DNA of 64,000 nt from Elsinoe ampelina (taxonomy: Eukaryota). Location: NCBI GenBank assembly GCA_010093995.1, contig ML992511.1, positions 1,020,172 through 1,084,171 on the forward strand, written 5' to 3'. Shown piece after piece: positions 1 to 27,522 of the stretch. Every line of letters starts with the position of its first letter. Within the stretch, counting starts at the first letter, position 1. The notes beneath the pieces were generated by a model. It was given only the letters and a program-made list of their open reading frames with translations. It was not told the DNA's origin and searched no databases. The translations under genes and the position numbers were made by a program.

Positions 1-1392
1 AGAGTTAGTATAAGTTATTAAAGTATTAACTATACCTAATAATGCCCCTAGCATATAGGCCCTTAGTAAGAACCTCTAAGGTAAAGCACTACTAAAAGAG
101 ATAGACCTTAGAAGCTCTATTAGTAGGTATATTAGGCTATATAGAATAGGCTAAGTAATAACCCTTAAGCTACTTAGGGTCCTTATAGGTTTAGGAGAGC
201 TAATAGGCCTTAGAGTTAGAGTATAGTTAGCTAAGGAACATCTAGTATATTAGTTGCTATAAGCATAGTAAGTATAGGCCTTATTAAGCTAACTAGGCAA
301 AGTAATACACTTACTAAACTTACTACTCTTGCCCTTGCTCTAATTATTACTAGGGTTAGATTCCTAACACTTAGTGTAGTAATTGGTGCTATAGTAAACT
401 ACTCTACTAGTAGCACTAGAAGCTATTAAAGTAGTAGAGTAGTTAGTAGATCTAGTAAGGTTAACTTACTTAGTTAGATCCTTAACTAGAATAGGATTAG
501 TAACTACTAGGTATATACTATAGGTACTAAAGGCCTAGACTACTATAGACCTCTAGATAGGATATAAGTTAGTATAGTTATAATAACTAATTATCCTAAG
601 CCTAAGAAGAGTATTCTAGATTATGTTAGCTAACTATTAAGTTAAAGTCTAAGTTAATTAAGCTATTAATGTTAGCTTATGCTATTAATGCTTTATAGCT
701 ACTTACTAAGAGCATTAAGACGAGCAATTAGTCTTATAGTAGTATTATAATTAACATTAGAAGTACTAGGTAACCTTAATAGAGGATTTCTCTTCTTACT
801 ACTACCTCCGCCACCTAGTAGACTACTTAGAGCACTAGCACTAGCAGCAATGCTGCTAATGCCTAGCTATTACTACACTGTAGCGCTTATATTATAAGTG
901 TTATTAATATAGTATAGTAAGAAGGTAAAAGTGTTATATAAAAGAAAAGGCTACTACTATAAGTGTAATAAAGGAAAGAGAAATTATAAAGAGGCTAGTT
1001 AGATACTTATATCTCTTTAATTAAGACTTATAAGCTAGTCTATTTACATAAACAATGGCTGCCTAGCTATTGTTAATAGTTACTATTGTTGCTAGCAATT
1101 ATAAGCTAAACTGATAGTGAATTCTCACTAATAATTAGCTAACACTAATAATCATAAGCAATTATAAAGAGATAAAGTAATAAGCTAATTACTTCACTTA
1201 CATGTAATAGGACAGTTCTCTAGCTTTAGTAATCTATACCAGAGGGGGAGTGTTGTAATGGAAGGCTGGTATAGCTTCTCTAGTACTAAAGAACTGGTAC
1301 TGATAAGTTAGCGCACGCACAGTAGATAAATCGGTTATTGTAACTCTCTGAATGAAACACACGTCTCTCGATCCGATTTGCTAGTTACAACA
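1..1392 (+). mobile_element. 3' end of a RIP-degraded LTR retrotransposon (internal region + PPT + 3' LTR), truncated by the window start
   Basis: Very AT-rich and TpA-saturated. Polypurine tract AGAGGGGGAG (1241-1250) is immediately followed by TGTTGTAA (1251), and the segment ends in its exact inverse TTACAACA (1385-1392). Superfamily not determined. Confidence 0.85.
1251..1392 (+). repeat. Long terminal repeat (142 bp, TG...CA, 8-bp terminal inverted repeat)
   Basis: TGTTGTAA...TTACAACA directly after the PPT. The following CCTCA (1393-1397) is the candidate target-site duplication; its partner lies outside the window. Confidence 0.85.
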
Positions 1393-11638: not shown

Positions 11639-12169
11639 TTTGTTGAGGGTGAGGAGGTGGAAAGAGGAGAGAGTAGGAATCGAGGGTGACTTACTGTTGA
11701 AGATCGAGCTGGATCTTGGTGGTTGACGGCAGTTGGGTGGAGGGGAGGAGGATGTGGGGTTAGTTGGGGAAGCTCCAAGATCTTTCATGTCATTTCTAAT
11801 TTGCAGGTATACCTACTGCACAATCAACGTCCTGTAGCACGGTGTGAAGTATTTGCATGAAGCATAAGCTCGTTGTACATGTCGTGCCGAGTTGTGACAG
11901 TCAAATAGATGTCAGCTATTCCTCGTCATGCTGGGCTTCTCCAAATTCCGATCGCGGAACTCGTGGGGTCAAAAAAAAAATAGCAGGTGGGGTTACAGGG
12001 CTTTTCAGTTCAAACGAGCCACCCCCAGGCTTGGCGCACGCTTTACCGACTTCTAAGCTACAAATTTTAGTAGCTAGAGGTCTAGATAGTATATAGGTAC
12101 AAATTCGTTATTGTTAACTAAAATTAAAGCTAAAATAAGGTGTAATAAAGGTAGTATACCTTTATATAA

Positions 12170-14025
12170 GTATATAATAGCTAAAAAGTACTCTACTACC
12201 CTCCCTTACTACTAGCTAGCTTATAATAAGAGGCCTTTAAGAGCTACTTATAAGGCTAAAGAGGTAGTTAATACTTTATAAGAGAAAGAGGTAGTAGTAG
12301 AGTTATTACTAGTACTATTATAGTTTTCTTAGCGCTCTTCTAGCTCTCTTAGAGAGATTAATCTAGTTTAATAGAGGCCTCCGATACTATAACTATAAGC
12401 TAGCTAAACGCTAGTACCTTATCTAGTCCCTCTAAATATAGACTAAGCTCTTCTTAAGTATATTATAGCTAAAGGTACTATAGTCTCTTTTACTACTAAC
12501 TAGCTAAGGCCTTTACTTAAGTAACTACTACTAAGAAGACCTTTTTTTCTAGATAAGGGTAGTAGTAGTAGTAGTAAAAGAGAAAGAGTTAGATAAAGAG
12601 CTAGAGTTAGTAAAGAAGATATTAGAGAAGAGAAGAAAATAGTTTATTAAGAAGATAGCTACTTAAGAGAAAAAGAAGTAAAAGAAGAAGAAGAAGGCTA
12701 CTATAGAGGCTACTATAGCCTCTATAGTAGCCTCTATATAAATATCTCTATTATTACTTCTACTAGAGACGTAGGAGAATTACTTAGATAATCCCTTTAC
12801 TAGTTACTTAGTAGATATAAAATTAATAGTAAGACTTAGATTAAAGAAGGTAGCTCTAGATAAGTATATCTTTAACTAGCTAGCTAAGATCTTATAGTCT
12901 TCTATATTAGATTAGATAGTAAAGAAGAGATTAGCTAGCTTAGAGTATAATATTATTCTTCTTAAGGTTAATATAATTACTTAGTATAGTAGCCTTAAAA
13001 GAGATAACTATATAGCCTTTACTATAGTATAGTTAGCTAACTTTAAGGACTTAACTAGTAAGCTAGAGGCGTAGGCTTAAGATAAGTAACTACTATTAAA
13101 GACTAGCCTAAGTATAATAATAAAGAAATTAACTCTAGTACTATTTTTAGCTTAAGCCTCTTAGCTATAGCCTCTTTTAACTATACTAATCTTTCGATTA
13201 ATAATAGTACTACCTTCTATACTATAAGCCTTTTCTACTCTCTTACTATTATTAGCTTAGCTATATCTCTTCTTCTCTTTATAGTCTTTTTAAGATACTA
13301 TACCTTCTTAAGGCTATACCTTAGTAACTAGCTAACTATATAGTATATTAGTAGCGATAAATAGTAATTAAGAGCTAGATTTAATATAGTATTAGAAGTA
13401 TATAGATTAGACTTATATAAATTTTAGTAATATATACTAGAGAACTATTAAGGGTAAGTACTATAAGCTAGATAAAGCTATAAGGCTTTAATAGAGCGCT
13501 ATAGTAAGAAGTAATAGCTATAGTATTAATTAGCCTCCTCTAGTACTTATAATTACTCTTAATAGAAGTAGGCCTTTAAGAAGAGCTATCTTAAAGACCT
13601 CTATTAACTTACCTTATTCTATACTACTAACTCTACTACTAGCCTATTTAGCTTTACTAGTACTAGTTAATACTATTAATATTACTAATATATACTTAGA
13701 ACTACTATACTATATACTTCTTTAATCCTTATCTTCTTTAAGTAGTATAATTACTAACTTTAAGTAATTCTTATCTATTAGTTCTAATACTAATCTAGTA
13801 GAAGTTTTAGCTAAATTCTTTAACTAGTTAAAAAGGAAAGAGGCCTTTAAAAGGTAGAAGGCTATACTTAATAATATAAAGTTTAGATTAAAGAGTAAGA
13901 ATTATAATATTAATAGCCTTTAAAGTATTAATTTCTCTTATTAGAGAGAGAAGTAGTACTTTAATAAAAGTCTCTTAGTATAGATAATTAGTAAGATAAG
14001 CTTCTTTAAGCGCTAGTATCTTTAA
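12170..14025 (+). pseudogene. RIP-mutated accessory ORF inside the Tc1-like element (Lys-rich/coiled-coil region + putative C3H zinc-binding motif); ends approximate
   Basis: One frame whose stops are all RIP-type TAG/TAA. De-RIP of 13393-13539 gives W-x-C-x4-C-x-N-x4-C-W-x6-H-x2-L-x7-W-x13-PP. Confidence 0.55.
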
Positions 14026-14149
14026 TAGTAATATTATACTACTTAGTAGACTAGATAGCCTTCTAAAATTAGTATAAGAAGAGGTAGTAGAGAACTAAGG
14101 TAGTAGTATAGAGTTTTTAATATCTCTTAGTACTAGTAGATATTAAAGC

Positions 14150-15120
14150 TAAGTTTAACCTTATAAGTCTTTTATCTCTTTATACTTATCTATTTATCTT
14201 ATACTATATCTATAGCTTTTAAAATAGTTTCTAGCGTCTTTACTATAGTATAGCTAAACTACTAATACTAAGAAGTTCTAATATTTATTAAATTCTATAG
14301 CTAAATATTAGTACTTCTTTACCTATACTTTAAGTACTAAGAATAACTACTTAATAGAGTTAAAATTTAGTAAATATAGTAGTAAGTACTTAAGGTAGCT
14401 TCTATATTTAATTATAAGCTCTTTTACTTTATTATAGTAATATATTAAAGTATTATCTATAACTAGAATTAAGCTAGCTAGTAGCTATAGTAGTACTAAC
14501 TCCCTTAGCTACTAGATAAAGATATTCTCTATAATTAAGCTATAGTAAATAAGTACTCTATTAAGGTATTTATTTATAGTAATTACTAGAAGTATACTCT
14601 AGCGCTTACTTCTTTACTTTAGCTAACTATCTATATAGTTAATACTAATAGGTACCTATCTATATCTCCTTTATATAGTATACTTATTATAAGCTAACTT
14701 ATTAATATAAATAATACTTTTAACTAGCTAGCTCTTATAGTATATACTCTAATTATTTCTTAATATAGTATCTCTTTCTATAGCTATCTTCTTAGCTACC
14801 TTCCTTAACTACTTCTAGTACTTAATTATCCTCTAGATAGTACTAATAGATACTAGTATAGTATAGATCTTAAAGAGAAAGTTCTTTACCTTATTAAGAT
14901 AAGCTATAGAAATATTATTAAGGTATAGAATAACTTACTTAGAGTAGTATTAGTAGATAGTAAAGGCTAGTAAGAGTAAGACTTATATCTTTAAGAGCTA
15001 GAGATAGTAGCCTTAAGTAGTAGTTAACTTTATTAGGAGAATAAAGAGTACTAAAGAACTTAATTAATAGTCTTATCCTCTAGATAGTAGAGTAAGTAAC
15101 CTTAGTAGTACTATAGATAG
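14150..15120 (-). pseudogene. RIP-mutated DD34E transposase (DDE_3/IS630-Tc1 type); ends approximate
   Basis: After reversing RIP, in one frame: IDES (D at 14703), VMDNASIHH (D at 14457) and YLPPYSPDFNxIE (E at 14352), with 34 residues between the second D and the E. Confidence 0.85.
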
Positions 15121-15878
15121 TATAGTTTAAATAGCCTTTAGCTAGAAGAAACTCTACATTAGCTAATTTAGCTAGAGTAATTTAATAGTTTACTATACTA
15201 GCTATTATATCTTTTTTTAGCTTTAAAAATCAAGTAATTAACAATAATTATAACTATAATCTATCTAGACTTCTAGCTAGCCAAATTTGGTAATGCAACG
15301 TCTTAAACAATTATGCCAAGCCTGGGGGTGGCTCGTTTGAACTGAAAAGCCCTGTAAAAGTGGTCGGCTATTTTCGGCAAAGAGACGACAATTGCTCGTA
15401 ATGTCAAAAAGCAGGAATATCGAGACCAATTTTTGCTAATCTCCCTGAGTACATTGAGGCTGGAGTACAGTGTAGCAGGAGAACACCGAGGTAATCTTAC
15501 GACCGTTCGATGTTCTCAGGCTATACAGTAAGTACATATGCTTTGCTGGGTTGGAGAAGCCGTGGCTGTTACTGTTGCCAACTCACAGCGATTTAGATCG
15601 TGACACCATAGAAACACAGCGTTATACATCGAAGAGTGCCTGACATCGAAGAGCACCTGATGGTGGACCAAAACAGTCATGAAGGAAGTCTGAATACATC
15701 GCTCGCTAAGTATCATCGTAGATAATCGCACGTCTGTCCTGTCACCTGGTGCCCACTCACACTCATCGCCCAGCATTACCAGGTCCTGTCAACGTCTGCC
15801 CACGACGTCTACATTTTCGACCCGTAGATTGTGAGTCTCTGCACTCAAGCAAGCCTGTCCCAACGTCGCGCAGTTCCA

Positions 15879-17473
15879 TCACATCCACAAGTATCCCCGA
15901 CACTTTTCCGCACCACACTTGCATTCGACCTTTGACTTGCCATCATCCATCGCTCTATCAGTCATGCTCACATCTCCATCCTTTACTGGCGCGGCATCAC
16001 CGCCGTCCATGTAGTCGAACGTCAGTTCCTGTCCAGCTGGGATGTCGTCGCAAGCGAAGAATGCCAGATCGTAAACGAAGTAGTCGTACTTGTTGTAGCT
16101 GACCGTGTGTATTTGCACATTCGGTTGGCAGCAGTGGTTGATGAAGCGAGTAGGCCCGCCCATGAAATGGCCGTCCACGACAAATGTCTTCTCCTGGGTG
16201 ATCACCTCTCCCGGACCAATCTTGTCGCCGGTGAATTTGTCAAGGGAAAAGAGGTAGGAAGCTCTGCCCGGTCCCGATTGAGCCTCTCGCTTGTCAGCTT
16301 CGGCGTCAGTGATGACCTCGCCGAGATAAGTATCGATGAATTGGCCACGCTGAAGAGGTTGTCGACAGCGAAGTCCGAAGCCTCGACCATTCGAGGTTTT
16401 GAATACCTCTAGCTCAACTCGTCGACCATGCTGAACATTGCGATTCTTGCAGATTGGTCCGCACTTGCATGCCGTGTTACATTCGTAGATGACATGCCGT
16501 TGTAATAAGTAGAAGTCTACCAAGCAGCCAGCTCGACCACCCGTGTGCAAGTATGGGAAGCGCTTTGCCAGACCAGCTGTTGTTGGAATCTCGTTGTTGT
16601 CAACCTGCCGCTTATGTTCCGCCTGCTGCTCCTCACTTAATTTGTCTAGGTCTGGTGCTGCGAACTCGAGGCATTCACACTTTTTGGTGTACTCGCAGCC
16701 ACGGTTTGCTCCCATATTTGGCCTGCATTGTTGACAACCCATGACTAGATCCTGTTTCGTTACACCTTCCCGAAAGACATACTCATCGATGAATTTGAAC
16801 GAGAGTGACGGTGTCTCCCTGTCGACATTGTTCTCGAAGCGTACAGGTGGCTGAAGAAGCTGAAGTCGTGACACATACCTTCGACGAATGGCATGTTCTG
16901 CGTCCTTCAGATTTGTTCCCGCAGCTTGCTCCTTCATTTCCAGGGTAGGAAGCTTCCTAACATCCAGAGCTGGGTTGGTTGTTGTAGGAACAGCAATAAG
17001 TGATCCTTCCTTCCTTTGAAGGAAACAATTGAACACACGTATCTCATTCTTCCCGCTCCCCTTCTTACCGTTCGCTGAATCAGTGGTGTGAATCGCATCA
17101 GGTCCGGGAGACAATCCGATTTCAGGCGTGAGTAATTGATTTTCTGAACGTTTACGTTTTGAGCCAGCGAGGCTATCAATTGAGGGCGTCAAATTTCTCG
17201 TTCGTTCGGATTGCTTGTGCTGCTCAATATGCTGTTGAACTAGGTGGAGGACGCCACCCAGCTCCTCCAGTCCATGCCAAGACAAGGGCGGGTATGCATC
17301 GTCCTGTGATTTCCAGCAAATGAGATACTCGGAGCGCTTCTGATCATCCGGGCATGGTCGATGTGTGATGATTGACTCGATCTGATAATGACATTAGAGG
17401 TGAAAGTGAATGGGAAGTTTCTAGAGCGCCTTACTTTTGACTGCTCCACGATGTATCGACTGCGGGGAGGCAT
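15879..17473 (-). CDS. dim-5: Histone H3K9 methyltransferase Clr4/DIM-5 (pre-SET, SET, post-SET), about 513 aa, with chromodomain-like N-terminus
   Basis: Cys-rich pre-SET, GRGFGLR, YLFSLDK, RFINHCCQPN, ELTFDY and post-SET CKCGAEKCRGYLW. Exon 1 (17473-17435) plus intron 17434-17382 extends the ORF in frame. Confidence 0.93.
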
Positions 17474-20047: not shown

Positions 20048-21012
20048 CTACTTGCAAGCCAAGCTAAACTTCGGCTTCCTGTTCGCATCCATAGCACCCC
20101 AGACAGTCTCAATCTTCTCCTCCCCATTGTCGCCAGTGGTGCTTGGCTTCCATGGCTCGTCAAAGGCCTCAAAGTAGAAGGCGTTGACGCCCCAGTCGAG
20201 CAGGCCGCAGAAACCTTGCTGGTAGAATGTCTCGGCGTTCTTGGTGCCGGCGCTGGCGGCCTCGTAGTCGCTGCCGCCGTCGGTGGGCCAGCCGGTTTCG
20301 CCGTTCCAGACTTCGATCTTGTCGAGGGAGCCGGATACGGATTGGATGCGGCCGAGGGCTTGCATCATGTCGTCGAGGTAGACGTGGGTGGCGTTCTCGA
20401 TGGGGGCGCCTTGCCAGTAGGCGAAGGCGTTGGCGAGGCTGAGGAGGGTTAGTGGTGAGGAGGGAGATGGACGGAGGATGAAGCTTACAGGATGTCGACG
20501 CCGCCTTGGATGACTGCATCTGCGGTGCCGTCGGCGTACTTGTTCCACGAGTCGGCAGTTCCGACCCTGACGCCATCTGGGAGAACACCCTTGATCTCGT
20601 TGATCTTCTCGAGGAGCTCTGGACCAGTGAAGTTGCCCCTGTAGAGCGTCTCGGAGCCAACCGTCACGGCGTAGACCTGATCCTTGTATTGTGGAACGTA
20701 TTGTTGGAGAGCGGCCTTGTCATTCTGCAATGACTCTGGGGTATCTGGCCAAACACCGAGGACGACCTTGAAATCCTTTGCCTTTGCTGCTGGGAGAATG
20801 TTCTTTGCGGTATCACACTGACCAGCAGCGTAGATACGGACAATGTTGCTGCCGGAAGCCTTGATGGCATCAAAGTCGGCTTCCCAATCGGATTGCTTCT
20901 TGCATTGTGTGGTGCTGCCAATGACGGATCCTACGGCGAATCCGTGTTTGCCGACTGCGAGGGCGGATGGGAGGATGGCTGCAGTGGCAGCGAGAGCGGA
21001 TGAAACACGCAT
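20048..21012 (-). CDS. BGL2: GH17 beta-1,3-glucanosyltransferase/glucanase (Bgl2/Bgt1)
   Basis: Signal peptide, VTVGSETLYR, NGETGWPT, FEAFDEPWK. Intron 20488-20439. Confidence 0.92.
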
Positions 21013-22259
21013 GACGGAGAGACGTATGTTCTGTGGGTCGTGAAGAAATGCCTGACGAGGCTGATTCGTGTTCAAGGAGAAACCCTTTCGTATCCGGGCT
21101 GGCGATTACGGACTTGTGTTGTAGCAAGCAAGAGAGCGCAGAGGTAGGAATCGAGACGCCTACCAGGGGGTTGAAAGAGTGACGACGGTTAGCGCTTTGA
21201 GATTTGTGATTGAGAAGGAGAATGGAGAAGTTGGAAGGATGTGAAGCAGGCTTGTTTGGCTTGAGATTCGAGGCGTGCAGAGTGGCCGTGCCCGGCAGCA
21301 GCCGCTTGCCCAAAACCCCTGACGCTAGGCCAGGAACGCGCCGCGCTAGACGGTCGTGCATACGGTAGCTTCCGCCAAAACCGTCAAAACCATCAAAACA
21401 CTCAAAACCCCAAATCACCAAAGTTTGGAGGCCTTTAACTCCCTTAATTCTGTCAATATTAGTATACAATTAACATTAAACTGATTAGATTTATCTATTC
21501 TATTATCCTCTAACTTCGAGTATCTTTTTTAAGCTATTTTTAGTGCTAGCGTAATTAGTGTAAGTTATAGCGGCTAGGCAGCGAGGTGCTTAGCACTCCG
21601 CTAGTACTCCTACCTCTAACACCTTTATATTGCCTATATTATACAAGTACGGCGGCGACTGCACTATAAATACTATTAGAATAGATCTCTATTACTCTCT
21701 ATTTAAGCTACTAAGAGTAAGGCTTAATCTAGTAGGTGTTTATTATTCCTTACCGCTTTTAGTTAGGTCTTTATATTGTTACTATTGTTACTATTGTTAC
21801 TATTTAAACTAGTAACAATAATAGCAGCTCTAATATATATAAGATTATAGTTACTATATAGTTTAATTAGACCCCTACTATACTATTATAACTCTGTTAA
21901 ATTTAATTAAATATTTACTATAGCTAATACTACTAAAGTAACCCCTACTAAGTATGTATTATAGCATGTTCGTAGCTAGTTCGCTATTAACTTTACACTT
22001 TAGAAAGTCTAATCTATAAGCGCTAGATGCTATAATTAATAATAATGCCTATACCTCTAATACCTCTAAGGAAACTACTAGTAACTCTAAGGCCGCGTAT
22101 GTCTTTATAGCTCCTTAGGCTAGTGTTCGCTACTAATTCGTATAGCTACTCTATTATATATATATATCGCTGCCCTAAGACTAAGAATCTAGCTAGATTT
22201 TAGTATATCTCTAAGTTAAACTAGTTTAAGCTTATTAACACCTACGAGAATAGTAGTAA

Positions 22260-22620
22260 TAAGCGTAGTAAGGACTTTATAACGCTCCGTATATATAATA
22301 CTATCGGCTGTATTATAGAGATAGACGAAGGTGGCATTAGTAAACGTACCTACGAATAGTATATAAAGTTAAATAAGCTATACACTTACTTTCTTAATAA
22401 GCTATCCGAGTTATATATATACTACTGCCGCTACTATCGCTAGAGGTGTGCCTCTTAGCTTATAAAGGAGAAGCTAGAGGATTAGAAGCTAGTAACTATA
22501 GGCCGTATTAAGGAGCTTAAGTAGAGAGTAGAGGCGCTAGAGAATAATACGCTCGCTACTAAGGCTAAGTTATAGTAGCTAAGGGATAGAATTACGAAAC
22601 TTATAAATAGGCCTACGAAC
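22260..22620 (+). pseudogene. RIP-mutated Zn2Cys6-like cluster + coiled coil carried by the transposon (core only; ends approximate)
   Basis: TAC/TAT/TGT codons at 22351, 22360, 22381, 22414, 22423 and 22447 give Cx2Cx6Cx10Cx2Cx7C after de-RIP, followed by the heptad RIKELKQRVEALEN. Confidence 0.6.
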
Positions 22621-22753
22621 TAGTAGCGAATATAATACCTATATATTCTTCTAGAGTTTATAGACTATAATTATACTCCCTTTATACTACCTCTTCTAGT
22701 CGATATTAAATCGTAACTATATACACTATAAATTACTTAGCGAACTACTAGTA

Positions 22754-22820
22754 ATCTAACTTACACTATCTAACTTATACTATCTAACTTACACTATTTA
22801 ACTTACACTATCTAATTTAT
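22754..22820 (+). repeat. 14-bp tandem repeat (ATCTAACTTACACT x4 + partial) inside the transposon
   Basis: Read directly; copies differ only by C-to-T changes. Confidence 0.85.
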
Positions 22821-23039
22821 GTACCTCTAAATAGTAGCTCCTCTCCCCTTCCCCTCTACCCCTTAGTATCTCTCCTTTCTACTCTACTACCTAATCTAGA
22901 GATATCTATATCTTACGTAGCTTAGTAGCCTCTACTACTATAAGGGCCTCTACTCTCTCTCTCTACCTCCCCTCTCCTCTATAAGGAGATTTTTTACTAG
23001 AAGAGAATTATTAGTAAGAAGAAGTATATATATAGAGTA

Positions 23040-24700
23040 TTAAACTACGCCTTACCCTTTTAGGTAAGCCTATAACTCTAGTATAGACTTATAAGGCCTT
23101 TTAGCCTTATAGCTAGTATAACTATAGAGAGTGTAGTCTATTAGATTAATTATAGTCTTTTAATACTTACTAGCCTTAATTAAGTAATTACTTCGTATTT
23201 GCTTATATGTTTAAGATTTATATAATTACGTAGGCCTACTAACTTCCTTATACTATTCTTAATACTTCTTAGAGGTAAGAGTTACCTTAGTCTTAATCTC
23301 TTACTCTACTCCTATAGATAACTTAGCTTTAAAGAGTAAGCTATATAGTAAGTTTATTAGCCTACTAAGGGTCTCCTTACTTAGTACTATACGCTATAGC
23401 TACTAAGGGGGGTCGAAAGGTAGTAGAGACTTAGTAGTACTATCTAGATTAAAGAGATTATCCTATATAGTTAATAACTCGAGACTACTAACTATACTAG
23501 TCGGTATACTTATAAGAAGGCTCCTAGTACAAAGCTTAAAGCGTAGAGTCTCTAGTAGTAGAGCTAGCGTAGTAGTAGTAGGTACGGCTAGTAAAGACTC
23601 TATAAGGTCGATAGTCTCTTTACTATTAACTAGCTAGCTAGGCTACTTCTTCTTCCCCTTTACTCTAGCTACTAAAACTTACTATATACGCTTCTCGATT
23701 AGGGCCTTAATCTTATTATTAACTAATAAGGGCTCTAGCTTAACATTAACGTCGTTAGAAGTATTTAAAAACGAGAAGTTAGTATCCTCTATAAAAAGAT
23801 TTTTATACTATAAATTAGCCTTAATATTCGCTTTAGTGTTTATAGCTAGGAATATTATCGTGTTTATATTAGTGTTTATAGCGTAACTTAGAGATTCTAC
23901 TTCCCTTTATAGATACTTTATATACTTCTACTATTGCTTCGACTTGTCGTTCTTAGCTTATTTAATTATAACATAAAGGAGATACTCGATAGTAGTACAC
24001 TTCGATTTTAGCTTACGTAGGAGGCTAACTAACATCTTCTAGATACTCGGCTACTAGAAGACGTTATTAGTAATAGGTATAGCCTTATTGTCCTCTATTA
24101 GTACGAAATAGCGCTTCGTAAAGCGTAGTATTACTATCTCTAGATCGTAGATAGTAGGGTCGGGGTAGTAACTATAGACTATATTTAATAAGAAGAATAT
24201 TCTTTAGTAGTTACTCTCTAGTAATTCGGTATTAAACTCTAACGGCGTAATCTAGTCCGTCTACTTAGTTAGCTCTAGCTAAGAGACGATCTTCTTATAA
24301 GGTATACTATACTTAAGCTTATACTTTACCTCGATTATTAGGCTATAGAGGTAAAGTCTAATCCTTTACTCTTTCTTAGCCTTTAGTCCTTTAGGAGTTT
24401 CTTCGTTAGGCAAATTGTTTAGTAAATCCTTATATAAATACTAAGAGACTAGTAAAGATCCTATATATAGTAATTACGCTACTACGCCCTTAGCCTTTTT
24501 ACTCTTCTAGTATCCTATACGCCTTACTATATCGGCTTTAGTCGAGAGACTACTATATATAGTTAGCGCTAGCGCCGTAGATTGCTTTATATTCGCCGCT
24601 ACAATTGCGAGTTAGCCTATATTAGCCTAAGATAGGGCGTAAGTTAGACTACTAGATAGCGCGTAAGCTAGATTATAAGCTAGATTATAAGATAGACCGG
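23040..24700 (-). pseudogene. Second RIP-mutated ORF of the 5.55-kb element, function unrecognised; ends approximate
   Basis: The minus frame read across about 24420-23940 has only TAG/TAA (RIP-type) stops and coding-like codon flow. Confidence 0.45.
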
Positions 24701-25099
24701 CCTATATAGGTTAGTACTTAGGCTCTTCTAGTATTAATACTATACTTACTTATTAATAGTTTAGATTAGTCTTATAGTAAATAGGACACTTAGCGAGGTG
24801 TCTATATTTAACTATATAATTAGAGCCTTTATATTTATAAAACAGTGCCTAAGAAGGTAGCGGTATATCGCTAATAGTAAGAAACAAACAATATAGTAGT
24901 AATAAGCAAAAACTATAGAGAAAATAGAGTAGAAAAGCCCTAGTATATTCGAGGGAGAAATTTAATATATATAAGTTAAATGTTTATAGTATATTTACTC
25001 GGCGTTTACGATTTGCTTAGCAACTTCTATATATAATCGATAGCCTTAAGAATTATTCGGTTTTTAGTACTCTAATAGCGGAGAATAGCGCTACTATTA

Positions 25100-26570
25100 A
25101 TTATGCTTAATTAGTGTATTATAAAGCATAAAATAAGCCCTTTAGTAGAGTCTAACACCGCGAGCATTAGTTACTTAACTATTATAAGGCTAGAGGCTAG
25201 TAGTAGAGAGGATTAAGGTATAGAGATTAAGAGTATTAGAGGGTAGATATTACTTATAATCTAGTGCTTAATTAGCTATAAATATCTATTAGTACTTATA
25301 CCTTACTAAATTCGCTAGTATACTAGTCTAAATTATTAAATTAGTTAGGTAGTATAGTAATAGTATAGTCCTATACGCCGACTACCTCTAGATAATAATA
25401 TAGGAGTCTTAGTACTTCTATAATTATATATAGTTATCTTAGCTACTTCTAGAGGTAGTAATAGTTCTATTAATATACGAATTACTATACCTCTATACGA
25501 AGGATAGGTATATATATAGCTACGAGAGCGACTTAGTAAGCAATAAGATTACACTTCTAGTACTTTAACTTCTTTAGCTTAGTAAACTATCTTCGCTAGT
25601 AGTTCGTAGTACTCTTTGCAAGCTAGGCCTATTATAATTTAATACGCTAATTCTGCTTACTTGTACTAAATAAGAAGGCTTCCTTTACCTCTAAAGGGAA
25701 ACTACTTAGCTAACGCTAAGCGTTAAGATACACTTATAAGACTATCGTAGTCTTACTCTCTCTATCTATATAGATCTTAAGGGGGATCTAGCTATATAAG
25801 GTAGTAATAGTAGTATACTACTTTATAATTAATATAGCCTTCCTTACTAAGAAGCCTATATAGGCCTAAACGATATAGTATAAAAATTTGTTAATTATAG
25901 TATAAATCTTAATACTATACTCCTTAAGCTTATAATAGGCATCTATCGACTAGGTATAGTTCGGCCCTAGTACGTCTTATACGCTGTAACTAGTAGGCTA
26001 CTAGTTACTATAAATCTAGAACGCTAAGGGATTAATTATAATTATAGCGTAGTAAAGGCGCTAGCTAGGTTAGAGTTAGTAAACCAACTAGTAAACGCAT
26101 TATAAACACATATTACCTCCTAATAATCCTATGCTTCTGCCTTATATAGGTATAAAGGTAGCTAAGGCTCTAATTCTTAATATTGCTAGCGTTATATTTA
26201 CTTTATAGTAGCTACTATATTTACTTATACTTAACCTTGTTCTCTTCTTAATTAATCTAATAGATAAGGCCTAACCTTTTACATAGGCGCTTTAGCGTCT
26301 CTAAAGATATATTAAAGCCTTGCTCTTTTAGTACCTCTAGCGTCTCTTACTAGCTAATATATAGCTAGAATAGCTCCTTAATACTATAGTAGAGAGCCTT
26401 AGAGTTAACTAGTGCCTTAGAATAGGTAGAGAGCTACTAGCCTTATAAGAGACACTAGAGCGTTCTAAGCGACAGTATATAACTACGCCTTAATAGCCTC
26501 TAGAGTACTTTAGGCTAATTATAGCACTTATATAGTAACTAGTACTTAATAAGAGGCCTATCTACCTCGA
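25100..26570 (-). pseudogene. RIP-mutated retroviral-integrase-like DDE transposase with N-terminal Clr5/HTH-like region; ends approximate
   Basis: De-RIP, single frame: GPNYTWSIDAxxKLxxYGIxIYxxIDxFSRYIVW (25967 onward), RxDRESET (D at 25766), GTSKQNQRIESWW (E at 25640), then WNxHxLRKQ. Confidence 0.85.
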
Positions 26571-27522
26571 TTATAGCAGATTATAAAGCTATATCGAGTA
26601 GTCTAGTATGTTAGGGGGTAATAGGAAGGAAGGTACAGAAAACTAGCACACCTGGCTTTTATACTAGCGCTAAGCTATAAAAAACTAAAGGTATATAATA
26701 AGAGAATAATACTTACACTAAACGATAGAGCGTTATAAGAGCTGTCGATTGTAATAAGAATTATTGTAATAAGTGGTATAGCTAATACGCGAGGAGGTGG
26801 TGTAATTGCAAATGCTAGGTTTAAGCGTTTTGATGGTTTTGAGCGTTTTAATGGTTTTGACGGTTTTGACGGTTTTGGCGGAAGCTACCGTATGCATGAC
26901 GGTGCGCTAGGATGGAGTCTCGACCAATAAGACGCAAACATGAAATTTCGGGGATGCGTTCAAACTCTGTCAGTCCATGGTCGTCAACAGCATACGCATG
27001 TGCATGACGAGTCGGAGGCTGCTGCTCGGTCAATTTCTATCGTCAAGGTTGTACGTGTGCATGACATCGGGAGCTTGAGGCTACAGGCGCTCTTGAAAGG
27101 AGAGTGCACCACAATGCAGCTTGATCACAAACCGAACAGCGACAGTGTACACACAAGGTCACCATAGGCACAAGTTACAAGGAGTGATTTTGAAAGTTTT
27201 TCATTTAGATGGCTGTTCTGTTTTCCAGCACAGAAGGCTTACTCGGCCAAATACCACCATCCCTGCACTCCAAATGAATCCTAACGTGGGTATTCTAGTC
27301 GGCTAGTCTCTCGACTCAACCGCTACAGAAAGAGAAGAAGCTGTATATATGATATGCTGGGCATTACAAGGGCGTCATGTCGTGCGGCTTTCATGGCCGC
27401 GCCCGCGAGGTCGGATTGTCTTTCCTTGACTCGATCGAAATTGATAAAAGTGTATTGTTTGGTGAAGTGGTGATCATTTACTGACACCGAATGGAAGTGA
27501 AGACTCGCGGTGGGTCAACCGT

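Follow-up and report, generated by a model that had tools for sequence, protein, structure and literature searches.

The IS3EU superfamily (Repbase), which includes GingerRoot, is a poorly described superfamily of transposons. Its members are characterized by TA..TA ends and usually by a 6-bp TSD (PMC10045372), the fungal ones having TAYGG..CCRTA termini, and other fungal IS3EU elements carry anti-silencing cargo such as TET/JBP (PMC12730594). The closest described system is REP9/Styx of Zymoseptoria, an IS3EU-related element with an rve transposase, a 6-bp TSD and two DUF3716 genes beside the transposase; one of these, REP9-1 (193 aa, DUF3716), reduces the formation of pycnidia if expressed alone (PMC8232023). 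According to PMC10853768, Styx is reported only from Zymoseptoria. Sly1-1 of Neurospora crassa is likewise a fungal multi-gene TIR transposon with RIPed relatives, and it was rejected as a relative of the element described here, its CMC-type transposase (PMC4592977) being unrelated.

The window analysed here is a stretch of 64,000 nucleotides of fungal DNA, which contains three AT-rich tracts with a strong RIP signature. In one of these tracts, the original prediction had proposed a transposon-borne regulator of the Gal4-type Zn2Cys6 class. We found that the gene is real and is shared by four transposon families of the same genome, and that, judged by its sequence, its product forms a distinct protein family rather than a member of the Gal4 family.

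A RIP-decayed transposon and its coding content

The element in the window is a whole RIP-decayed TIR DNA transposon of 5,556 bp (21349..26904, no strand assigned), flanked on the plus strand by the 5-bp TSD CGCTA at 21344..21348 on the left and at 26905..26909 on the right. It belongs to family 1, which has 10 copies in the 28.3-Mb genome, the window copy included; every copy is mutated, and all 10 are dead. Each of the nine copies having both ends is bounded by its own 5-bp TSD. Five further copies without interruption measure 5,679 bp each, and the window copy is shorter than the other copies by ~110-120 bp at a 14-bp tandem repeat (22754..22823, +) between the convergent genes. The polymorphic columns of the six full copies comprise 1,224 transitions vs 60 transversions. 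Among four sequencing runs compared, all from one study, the differences in the DNA run are all RIP-type.

The left TIR (21349..21410, +) starts with GACGG and consists of a 33-bp core, with CGG-N6-CCG at its positions 15-26, followed by 9-bp subrepeats of the CAAAAC type. The right TIR (26820..26904) starts with CACCG on the minus strand and has the same core with more subrepeats. In all six full copies, CpA/TpG survive much better in the outer 150-300 bp than in the interior (21349-21650 and 26700-26904 in the window), from which it appears that RIP spares the element ends. A solo right TIR of a family-1 subfamily was also seen in un-RIPed DNA (L109; G000:C2, near 8460, minus strand).

The transposase pseudogene (25299..26592, -) is composed of a helical N-terminal part (26086-26592) and an rva_4/rve-type DDE core (25299-26114), whose catalytic positions lie near 25943, 25766 and 25640. 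The DDE core occupies a second frame relative to the N-terminal part, and a putative intron probably separates the two. In the least-mutated copy (L035), the transposase matches rva_4 (PF24764) with an E-value of 1.2e-13 and 51.6 bits against a cut-off of 26, and rve with an E-value of 0.0027. A Clr5 label considered for the N-terminal part was dropped: Pfam gives only a weak Arg_repressor match (E 0.03) and the literature search gave it no support. A second minus-strand pseudogene of ~520 codons, ORF2, occupies 23265..24866 and has no match to any known family in a Pfam scan. Inside ORF2, a short 12-bp repeat tract (24638-24696) matches family 2 as well as two unrelated RIPed elements, L134 and L135; these two were rejected as relatives, short repeats being all that they have in common with the window element. 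The element lies ~340 bp upstream of a GH17-like glucanase gene (20485-21012, -, E 9e-5), and thus probably in the promoter region of that gene.

The six-cysteine accessory gene and its intact homologs

The gene had been taken to start at 22330. The conserved gene begins ~60 codons further upstream, with an N-terminal helical module at 22168..22350 (+) bearing the family motif RRPxT..FW..W..ETDEG, and candidate ATG codons are found upstream at 22051 and 22099. The module is followed by the six-cysteine motif (22351..22449, +), in which five Cys codons have been mutated by RIP to Tyr and basic residues follow Cys5. The five Tyr codons and one surviving TGT are located as predicted (TAC 22351, TAT 22360, TAC 22381, TAT 22414, TAC 22423 and TGT 22447), with the spacing Cx2Cx6Cx10Cx2Cx7C in the plus frame from 22174. 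A heptad run of about four heptads, a coiled coil in the homodimer model of an intact homolog, occupies 22507..22602 (+). These heptads bear out the leucine heptad that had been read after the cluster; its Gln residues are reconstructed, because their codons are TAG in all 10 copies. The KR said to precede Cys1 did not hold, since the two least-mutated copies have GAA (Glu) in place of Lys 22342, which is therefore a RIP product.

From the window alone the six-residue pattern is weak, because a Cys/Tyr pattern of this kind turns up at least once in 14.5% of 200 versions of the element with shuffled codons. The segment was recovered from 10/10 copies, contrary to what would have refuted the original prediction, and across the alignment the six Cys columns read TGY in 1, 6, 6, 4, 3 and 5 of the 10 copies and TAY otherwise. 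Neither CAY nor CGY (His/Arg) was found at these six columns among the 10 aligned copies, whereas two neighbouring Cys/Tyr columns turn out to be Arg. An extra Cys column at 22387 (TGC in 3/10 copies) was discarded as a ligand, the homologs having Val there in 36 of 49 motifs. A RIP-killed gene with six cysteines and a coiled coil, carried alongside a transposase, is thus what the element holds, as had been proposed, and it is found in four families of the genome examined.

Word-seeded searches using the RIP-damaged alignments found no homologs. A full HMMER scan of 1.84 billion representatives with a profile of six X-read copies matched 13 proteins, 12 of which are true homologs; the remaining one, P0001, is a coiled-coil repeat protein and was dropped. 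A second homolog search returned 41 proteins. The named homologs come from Saxophila, Extremus, Recurvomyces, Cercospora and Zasmidium, all of which we take to be Mycosphaerellales. When the RIPed copies were aligned by hhalign with 45 intact homologs, a probability of 99.4 and an E-value of 5.6e-22 were obtained over 151 columns, with the six Cys in register. The full six-Cys motif occurs in 46 of the 54 database proteins examined (a set that includes seven cluster near-duplicates), giving 49 motifs, and the other eight proteins are truncated, decayed or differently spaced. The ~60-residue module before Cys1, which had been overlooked in the original prediction, folds in AlphaFold models of intact homologs as two helices with pLDDT of 92-94. 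A basic patch follows Cys5, with K/R in 42, 42 and 47 of the 49 motifs at positions +1, +2 and +5.

The homodimer model of the intact homolog P0021 reached a score of 0.35, the best of 3 controls being 0.00, with an interface of residues 118-164; at least 96% of contacts are shared between the runs, and pLDDT is at least 76. The score mark is reached by 21/30 solved pairs and 0/23 single chains (17/29 and 0/30 for eukaryotes), although a coiled coil may pass it by likeness to solved ones. The proteins of the family are therefore predicted by modelling to pair through a parallel coiled-coil homodimer that follows the six-Cys cluster. Searches by sequence against the PDB gave coiled coils only among the 60 matches listed, and the fold search with the whole model was likewise dominated by the coiled coil. 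With the domain alone there was no clear match (best Z 3.9, Foldseek E above 5). An ESM Atlas query with P0002 gave scores all below 0.8.

Homologs were also encountered in environmental DNA. Of 19 metagenome stretches, 4 encode homologs of the accessory gene, two of the contigs being short; the 59 pattern matches in viral_contigs included 0 relatives of the family. Neither transposase nor TIRs were seen at the 4 metagenome loci with intact homologs in a search of limited reach. At the two loci with long flanks the homologs sit among host-type genes, which indicates that the family also lives outside transposons. In some homologs (P0005, P0011, P0009, P0010 and P0003) the whole module occurs in tandem, as three or two copies, or weak AT-hook (E 0.09-0.22) or C2H2 (E 0.01) matches are present, and these arrangements suggest that hosts may have reused the domain. 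On the metagenome contig L041, two long hairpins (2306-2451 and 2639-2737) are positioned between the intact homolog and a convergent frame of 609 codons. This convergent gene was considered as a counterpart of ORF2 and rejected, the two being alike by eye with no detectable relation.

Sister families and comparison with described transposons

A match of 35-62 bp led to two further families: family 2, with 3 copies and a length of 5,047 bp, and family 3, with 2 copies and 67-69% DNA identity to family 2. In both families the accessory gene lies close to the left TIR and is read from the plus strand, opposite to the transposase, and a 5-bp TSD is present in 5/5 copies with both ends, which brings families 1-3 together to 14/14. 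The accessory gene is found at equal place and orientation in 10/10 copies of family 1, 3/3 of family 2 and 2/2 of family 3. A search of the genome with the transposase gave 14 matches, namely 12 family-1 pieces and two further elements. The element representing family 4 was found by its transposase alone and carries the accessory gene (E 2.5e-12), with a 6-bp TSD in its single copy. The accessory gene was not found in the DNA examined of the fifth rva_4 element (L152), which is interrupted by other repeats, and no transposase was detected within the ~13 kb examined beside another accessory-gene copy (L133). When the genome examined was queried with an intact homolog, element copies only were returned (6 matches of 8 candidates).

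Between family 1 and families 2 and 3 the accessory gene is 24-26% identical and the transposase 27%, and protein identity of the accessory gene product among families is 24-55% where measured. RIP does not make transversions, and the transversions in the accessory gene fall at codon position 3 in 26/47 cases between family 2 and family-3 copy 3a and in 26/52 between family 2 and the second family-3 copy, the corresponding values of the transposase control being 37/67 and 45/74. The gaps in the accessory gene between families 2 and 3a are 6, 6, 3 and 3, and some gaps are not multiples of three when the second family-3 copy is compared with family 2 or with copy 3a. The accessory gene has been under past purifying selection. 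Given its fixed place in four families together with the codon-position signs of selection, it is a conserved cargo of these transposons. Across families 1-4, the gene-side end begins with G in 6/6 end types and the transposase-side end with T or C; three families have TSDs of 5 bp, and one has a TSD of 6 bp.

How do these elements relate to IS3EU? The rve-like transposase (rva_4) is common to both, and so is the presence of extra genes, some of them oppositely oriented (PMC12730594). The sister families have TATGG or TAGGG at one end only, the TATGG being at the transposase end and comparable to the fungal TAYGG. In contrast, the window element ends in GACGG and CACCG and not in TA..TA, and the TSD is 5 bp in families 1-3 and 6 bp only in family 4 (1/1). 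Since ends and TSD, two defining features of IS3EU, are both different, we call the element IS3EU-related and not a member.

The similarity to Styx/REP9 is wider, as both are TIR elements with an rve-type DDE transposase and small six-Cys, DUF3716-like accessory genes (PMC8232023), and both exist as RIP-damaged copies with TIR variants that differ in their centre (PMC8232023, PMC10853768). They differ in size and content, Styx being described as 7.9 kb long with four genes and a 6-bp TSD, whereas the elements here measure 5.0-5.7 kb with a 5-bp TSD and, in family 1, three reading frames. Any sequence homology of the accessory family to REP9-1 and REP9-2 is putative. The best Pfam match other than coiled coils is DUF3716 (PF12511), at 15.3 bits and E 0.019, below the 22-bit cut-off, and DUF3716 is matched at E up to 0.5 in 12/45 members. 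In the ESM Atlas, the first match by features is a DUF3716 cluster (0.89, 186 of 256 features, DUF3716 annotated on 28% of members), and DUF3716 clusters reach TM 0.52 and 0.51 over residues 5-110. Alignment of the family by hhalign to three host DUF3716 segments was not above control. DUF3716 is the nearest named family, with a score below the cut-off, and we treat the Atlas similarity by features as a lead only. Two nearly identical un-RIPed DUF3716 genes lie within ~2 kb of contig ends (L075 and L076; G000:C12 ~1.005 Mb and C4 ~2.011 Mb).

The literature search, which covered mainly open-access papers, returned no description of the accessory-protein family or of IS3EU relatives with 5-bp TSDs beyond REP9/Styx. 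The genome has at least four families, related to this little-described superfamily, that share one six-Cys helper gene under selection, and 5- and 6-bp TSDs occur side by side among the related families of one genome. The effect of a REP9/Styx DUF3716 gene on the sporulation of a wheat pathogen (PMC8232023), from an element so far confined in the reports to one genus (PMC10853768), adds to the interest of such genes. A defined protein family with intact homologs and matched TIR variants provides material for asking what helper genes do.

Candidate functions of the accessory protein

Canonical Gal4-type spacing is Cx2Cx6Cx5-12Cx2Cx6-8C, and the family-1 spacing fits this pattern. As in Gal4, Ppr1 and Pho7 (PF00172), there are six Cys in two CxxC pairs with a coiled coil downstream. 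The original prediction went further and identified the protein as Gal4-type, with which the rest of the domain does not agree. In host Zn_clus domains (loci chosen by Pfam score, 25 of the top 30 having the motif in one exon), the Cys2-Cys3 loop has 6 residues in 25/25 and a mean charge of +4.0. In the accessory-gene family the mean charge of this loop is -0.3, and its length is 6, 7, 8 or 9 residues in 15, 8, 25 and 1 of the 49 motifs of intact homologs. In families 2 and 3 it reaches ~16 and ~12 residues, respectively, Cys3-Cys5 being deduced from Tyr codons in both. K/R/H stands at the Gal4-Lys18 position (Cys2+4) in 3/49 family motifs vs 25/25 host domains, the basic patch of the family is instead placed after Cys5, and Gal4-type proteins differ also in the 60-residue module before Cys1. 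The suggested check against Zn_clus (PF00172) gave at best 11.3 bits (E 0.4) in 1/13 proteins, the cut-off being 21 bits. The 25 families listed for the 45 members do not include Zn_clus, which the X-read copies also fail to match, and a PROSITE-like Zn2Cys6 pattern matched 0/54 proteins. Against a profile of the host Zn_clus domains the score was 15.2, which is within the range of a control keeping only the Cys (13.0 ± 2.3), so that no profile similarity beyond the Cys pattern is seen. Zn2Cys6 entries are absent among the matches listed of the whole-model and domain-alone fold searches, which does not speak against a binuclear-cluster fold; Pho7 (6o19) is a weak match of the intact-homolog model at Foldseek rank 3 (E 6.3, rmsd 5.1). 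Six-Cys spacing alone can misfile such proteins as Gal4-type regulators.

In a narrower form of the Gal4 idea, a dimeric binuclear-cluster regulator would recognise the CGG-N6-CCG of the TIR core, and several observations speak for it. Family 1 has Asn at the Lys18 position in 10/10 copies, and Pho7 binds CGG with the same residue there (PMC6265462). One homolog bears the UniRef name 'Zn(2)-C6 fungal-type', and the cluster at row 1 of the ESM Atlas structure search is named likewise (TM 0.51). The family-1 TIR core keeps CGG at 15-17 and CCG at 24-26 in three spacer variants, with a spacing that we take to be that of Ppr1 sites, and the exact N6 spacing occurs in only 4/616 host 60-mers. Against these points stand the loop, charge and profile results above, as well as the distribution of the sites. 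Any CGG-N0-12-CCG is present in 68/616 host 60-mers, and CGG-N6-CCG occurs in 4/13 end types, all of family 1, the TIRs of the sister families having none; being confined to family 1, it does not point to a function of the whole lineage. The subrepeats, whose CGG/CCG triplets had been offered as plausible sites, are no better candidates, as CCG appears in only 13/66 of the commonest units and what the subrepeats share is CAAAAC. Invariant across all 13 end types are A2, G5, A12 and C28-A29-A30, which might more simply be transposase contacts. On balance, we consider such a CGG-reading regulator improbable.

We propose, with somewhat better than even confidence, that the gene is an accessory gene conserved in an IS3EU/Styx-related lineage and encodes a dimeric, putatively zinc-binding helper that acts on the element's own DNA. 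In the predicted protein, of ~190-200 residues, the two-helix module would pack on the six-cysteine site, and a parallel coiled coil located after this site would join two chains. The six Cys would bind zinc, and the DNA contacts of the dimer would be made by the basic residues that follow Cys5 (C-A-Y-C-K-R-x-x-K) rather than by a first loop of the Gal4 type. The target is most likely the DNA of the element itself, where the dimer could help the transposase to engage or pair the ends, or could keep the element transcribed; the accessory gene is fixed near one TIR, facing the transposase. That the gene is instead a fragment of a host gene, captured once and carried passively without use to the element, is favoured by the intact homologs outside transposons at 2/4 metagenome loci, those with long flanks. 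This explanation is however largely refuted, and we regard it as highly improbable, in view of the equal place of the gene in four families at 24-55% protein identity, a third-position bias equal to that of the transposase, and the restriction of intact-homolog matches in the genome to element copies. A host-directed factor, acting like REP9-1 on host chromatin, silencing or development and having no role at the element ends, deserves more weight, although we think it rather unlikely. That REP9-1 alters host sporulation (PMC8232023) points at host targets and against a role on the element's own DNA, and the homologs among host genes, the tandem domain copies (P0005, P0011), the weak AT-hook/C2H2 matches and the TET/JBP cargo of other fungal IS3EU (PMC12730594) are in line with this. 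On the other side, a harmful effect of REP9-1 on its host can be a side effect, and three named homologs do not appear in the BLAST tables of the REP9 paper (PMC8232023). A broader and doubtful extension of the helper reading would join these lines together: a family outside existing models, dimeric and DNA-binding with six Cys, may read DNA with its second Cys-helix in place of the Gal4 first loop. Transposons of an IS3EU-related lineage, in which the ends are shifted and the TSDs measure 5 bp, would then require it as a second component. The hypervariable first loop of the family (6-16 residues) would co-evolve with family-specific TIR cores, and Mycosphaerellales hosts may have domesticated the family repeatedly (tandem copies, AT-hooks). 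If so, Styx would be one member of a wider, RIP-hidden lineage.

It had also been suggested that all three transposable elements of the window carry a Cys-rich accessory gene. The other two do hold some Cys-rich frame, but no relative of the accessory family: the family profile found nothing in 24 loci of these two repeats, and neither window copy shows the strict six-Cys/Tyr pattern. To judge from these comparisons, the Cys-rich frames of the three repeats are not one family. One of the two repeats, at 1-1392, represents the terminal part of a high-copy repeat whose end is LTR-like, and the other, at 11993-15357, appears Tc1-like from its translation. In a relaxed scan, Cys-rich frames were located at ~246-350 (+) in the LTR-like end and at ~14630-14760 (+) in the Tc1-like element, both unrelated to the accessory family. 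About 520 bp separate the RIPed Tc1-like element from the end of a Pre-SET/SET gene (15879-16937, -; E 5e-14 and 6e-21) that presumably resembles the H3K9 methyltransferase DIM-5/Clr4.
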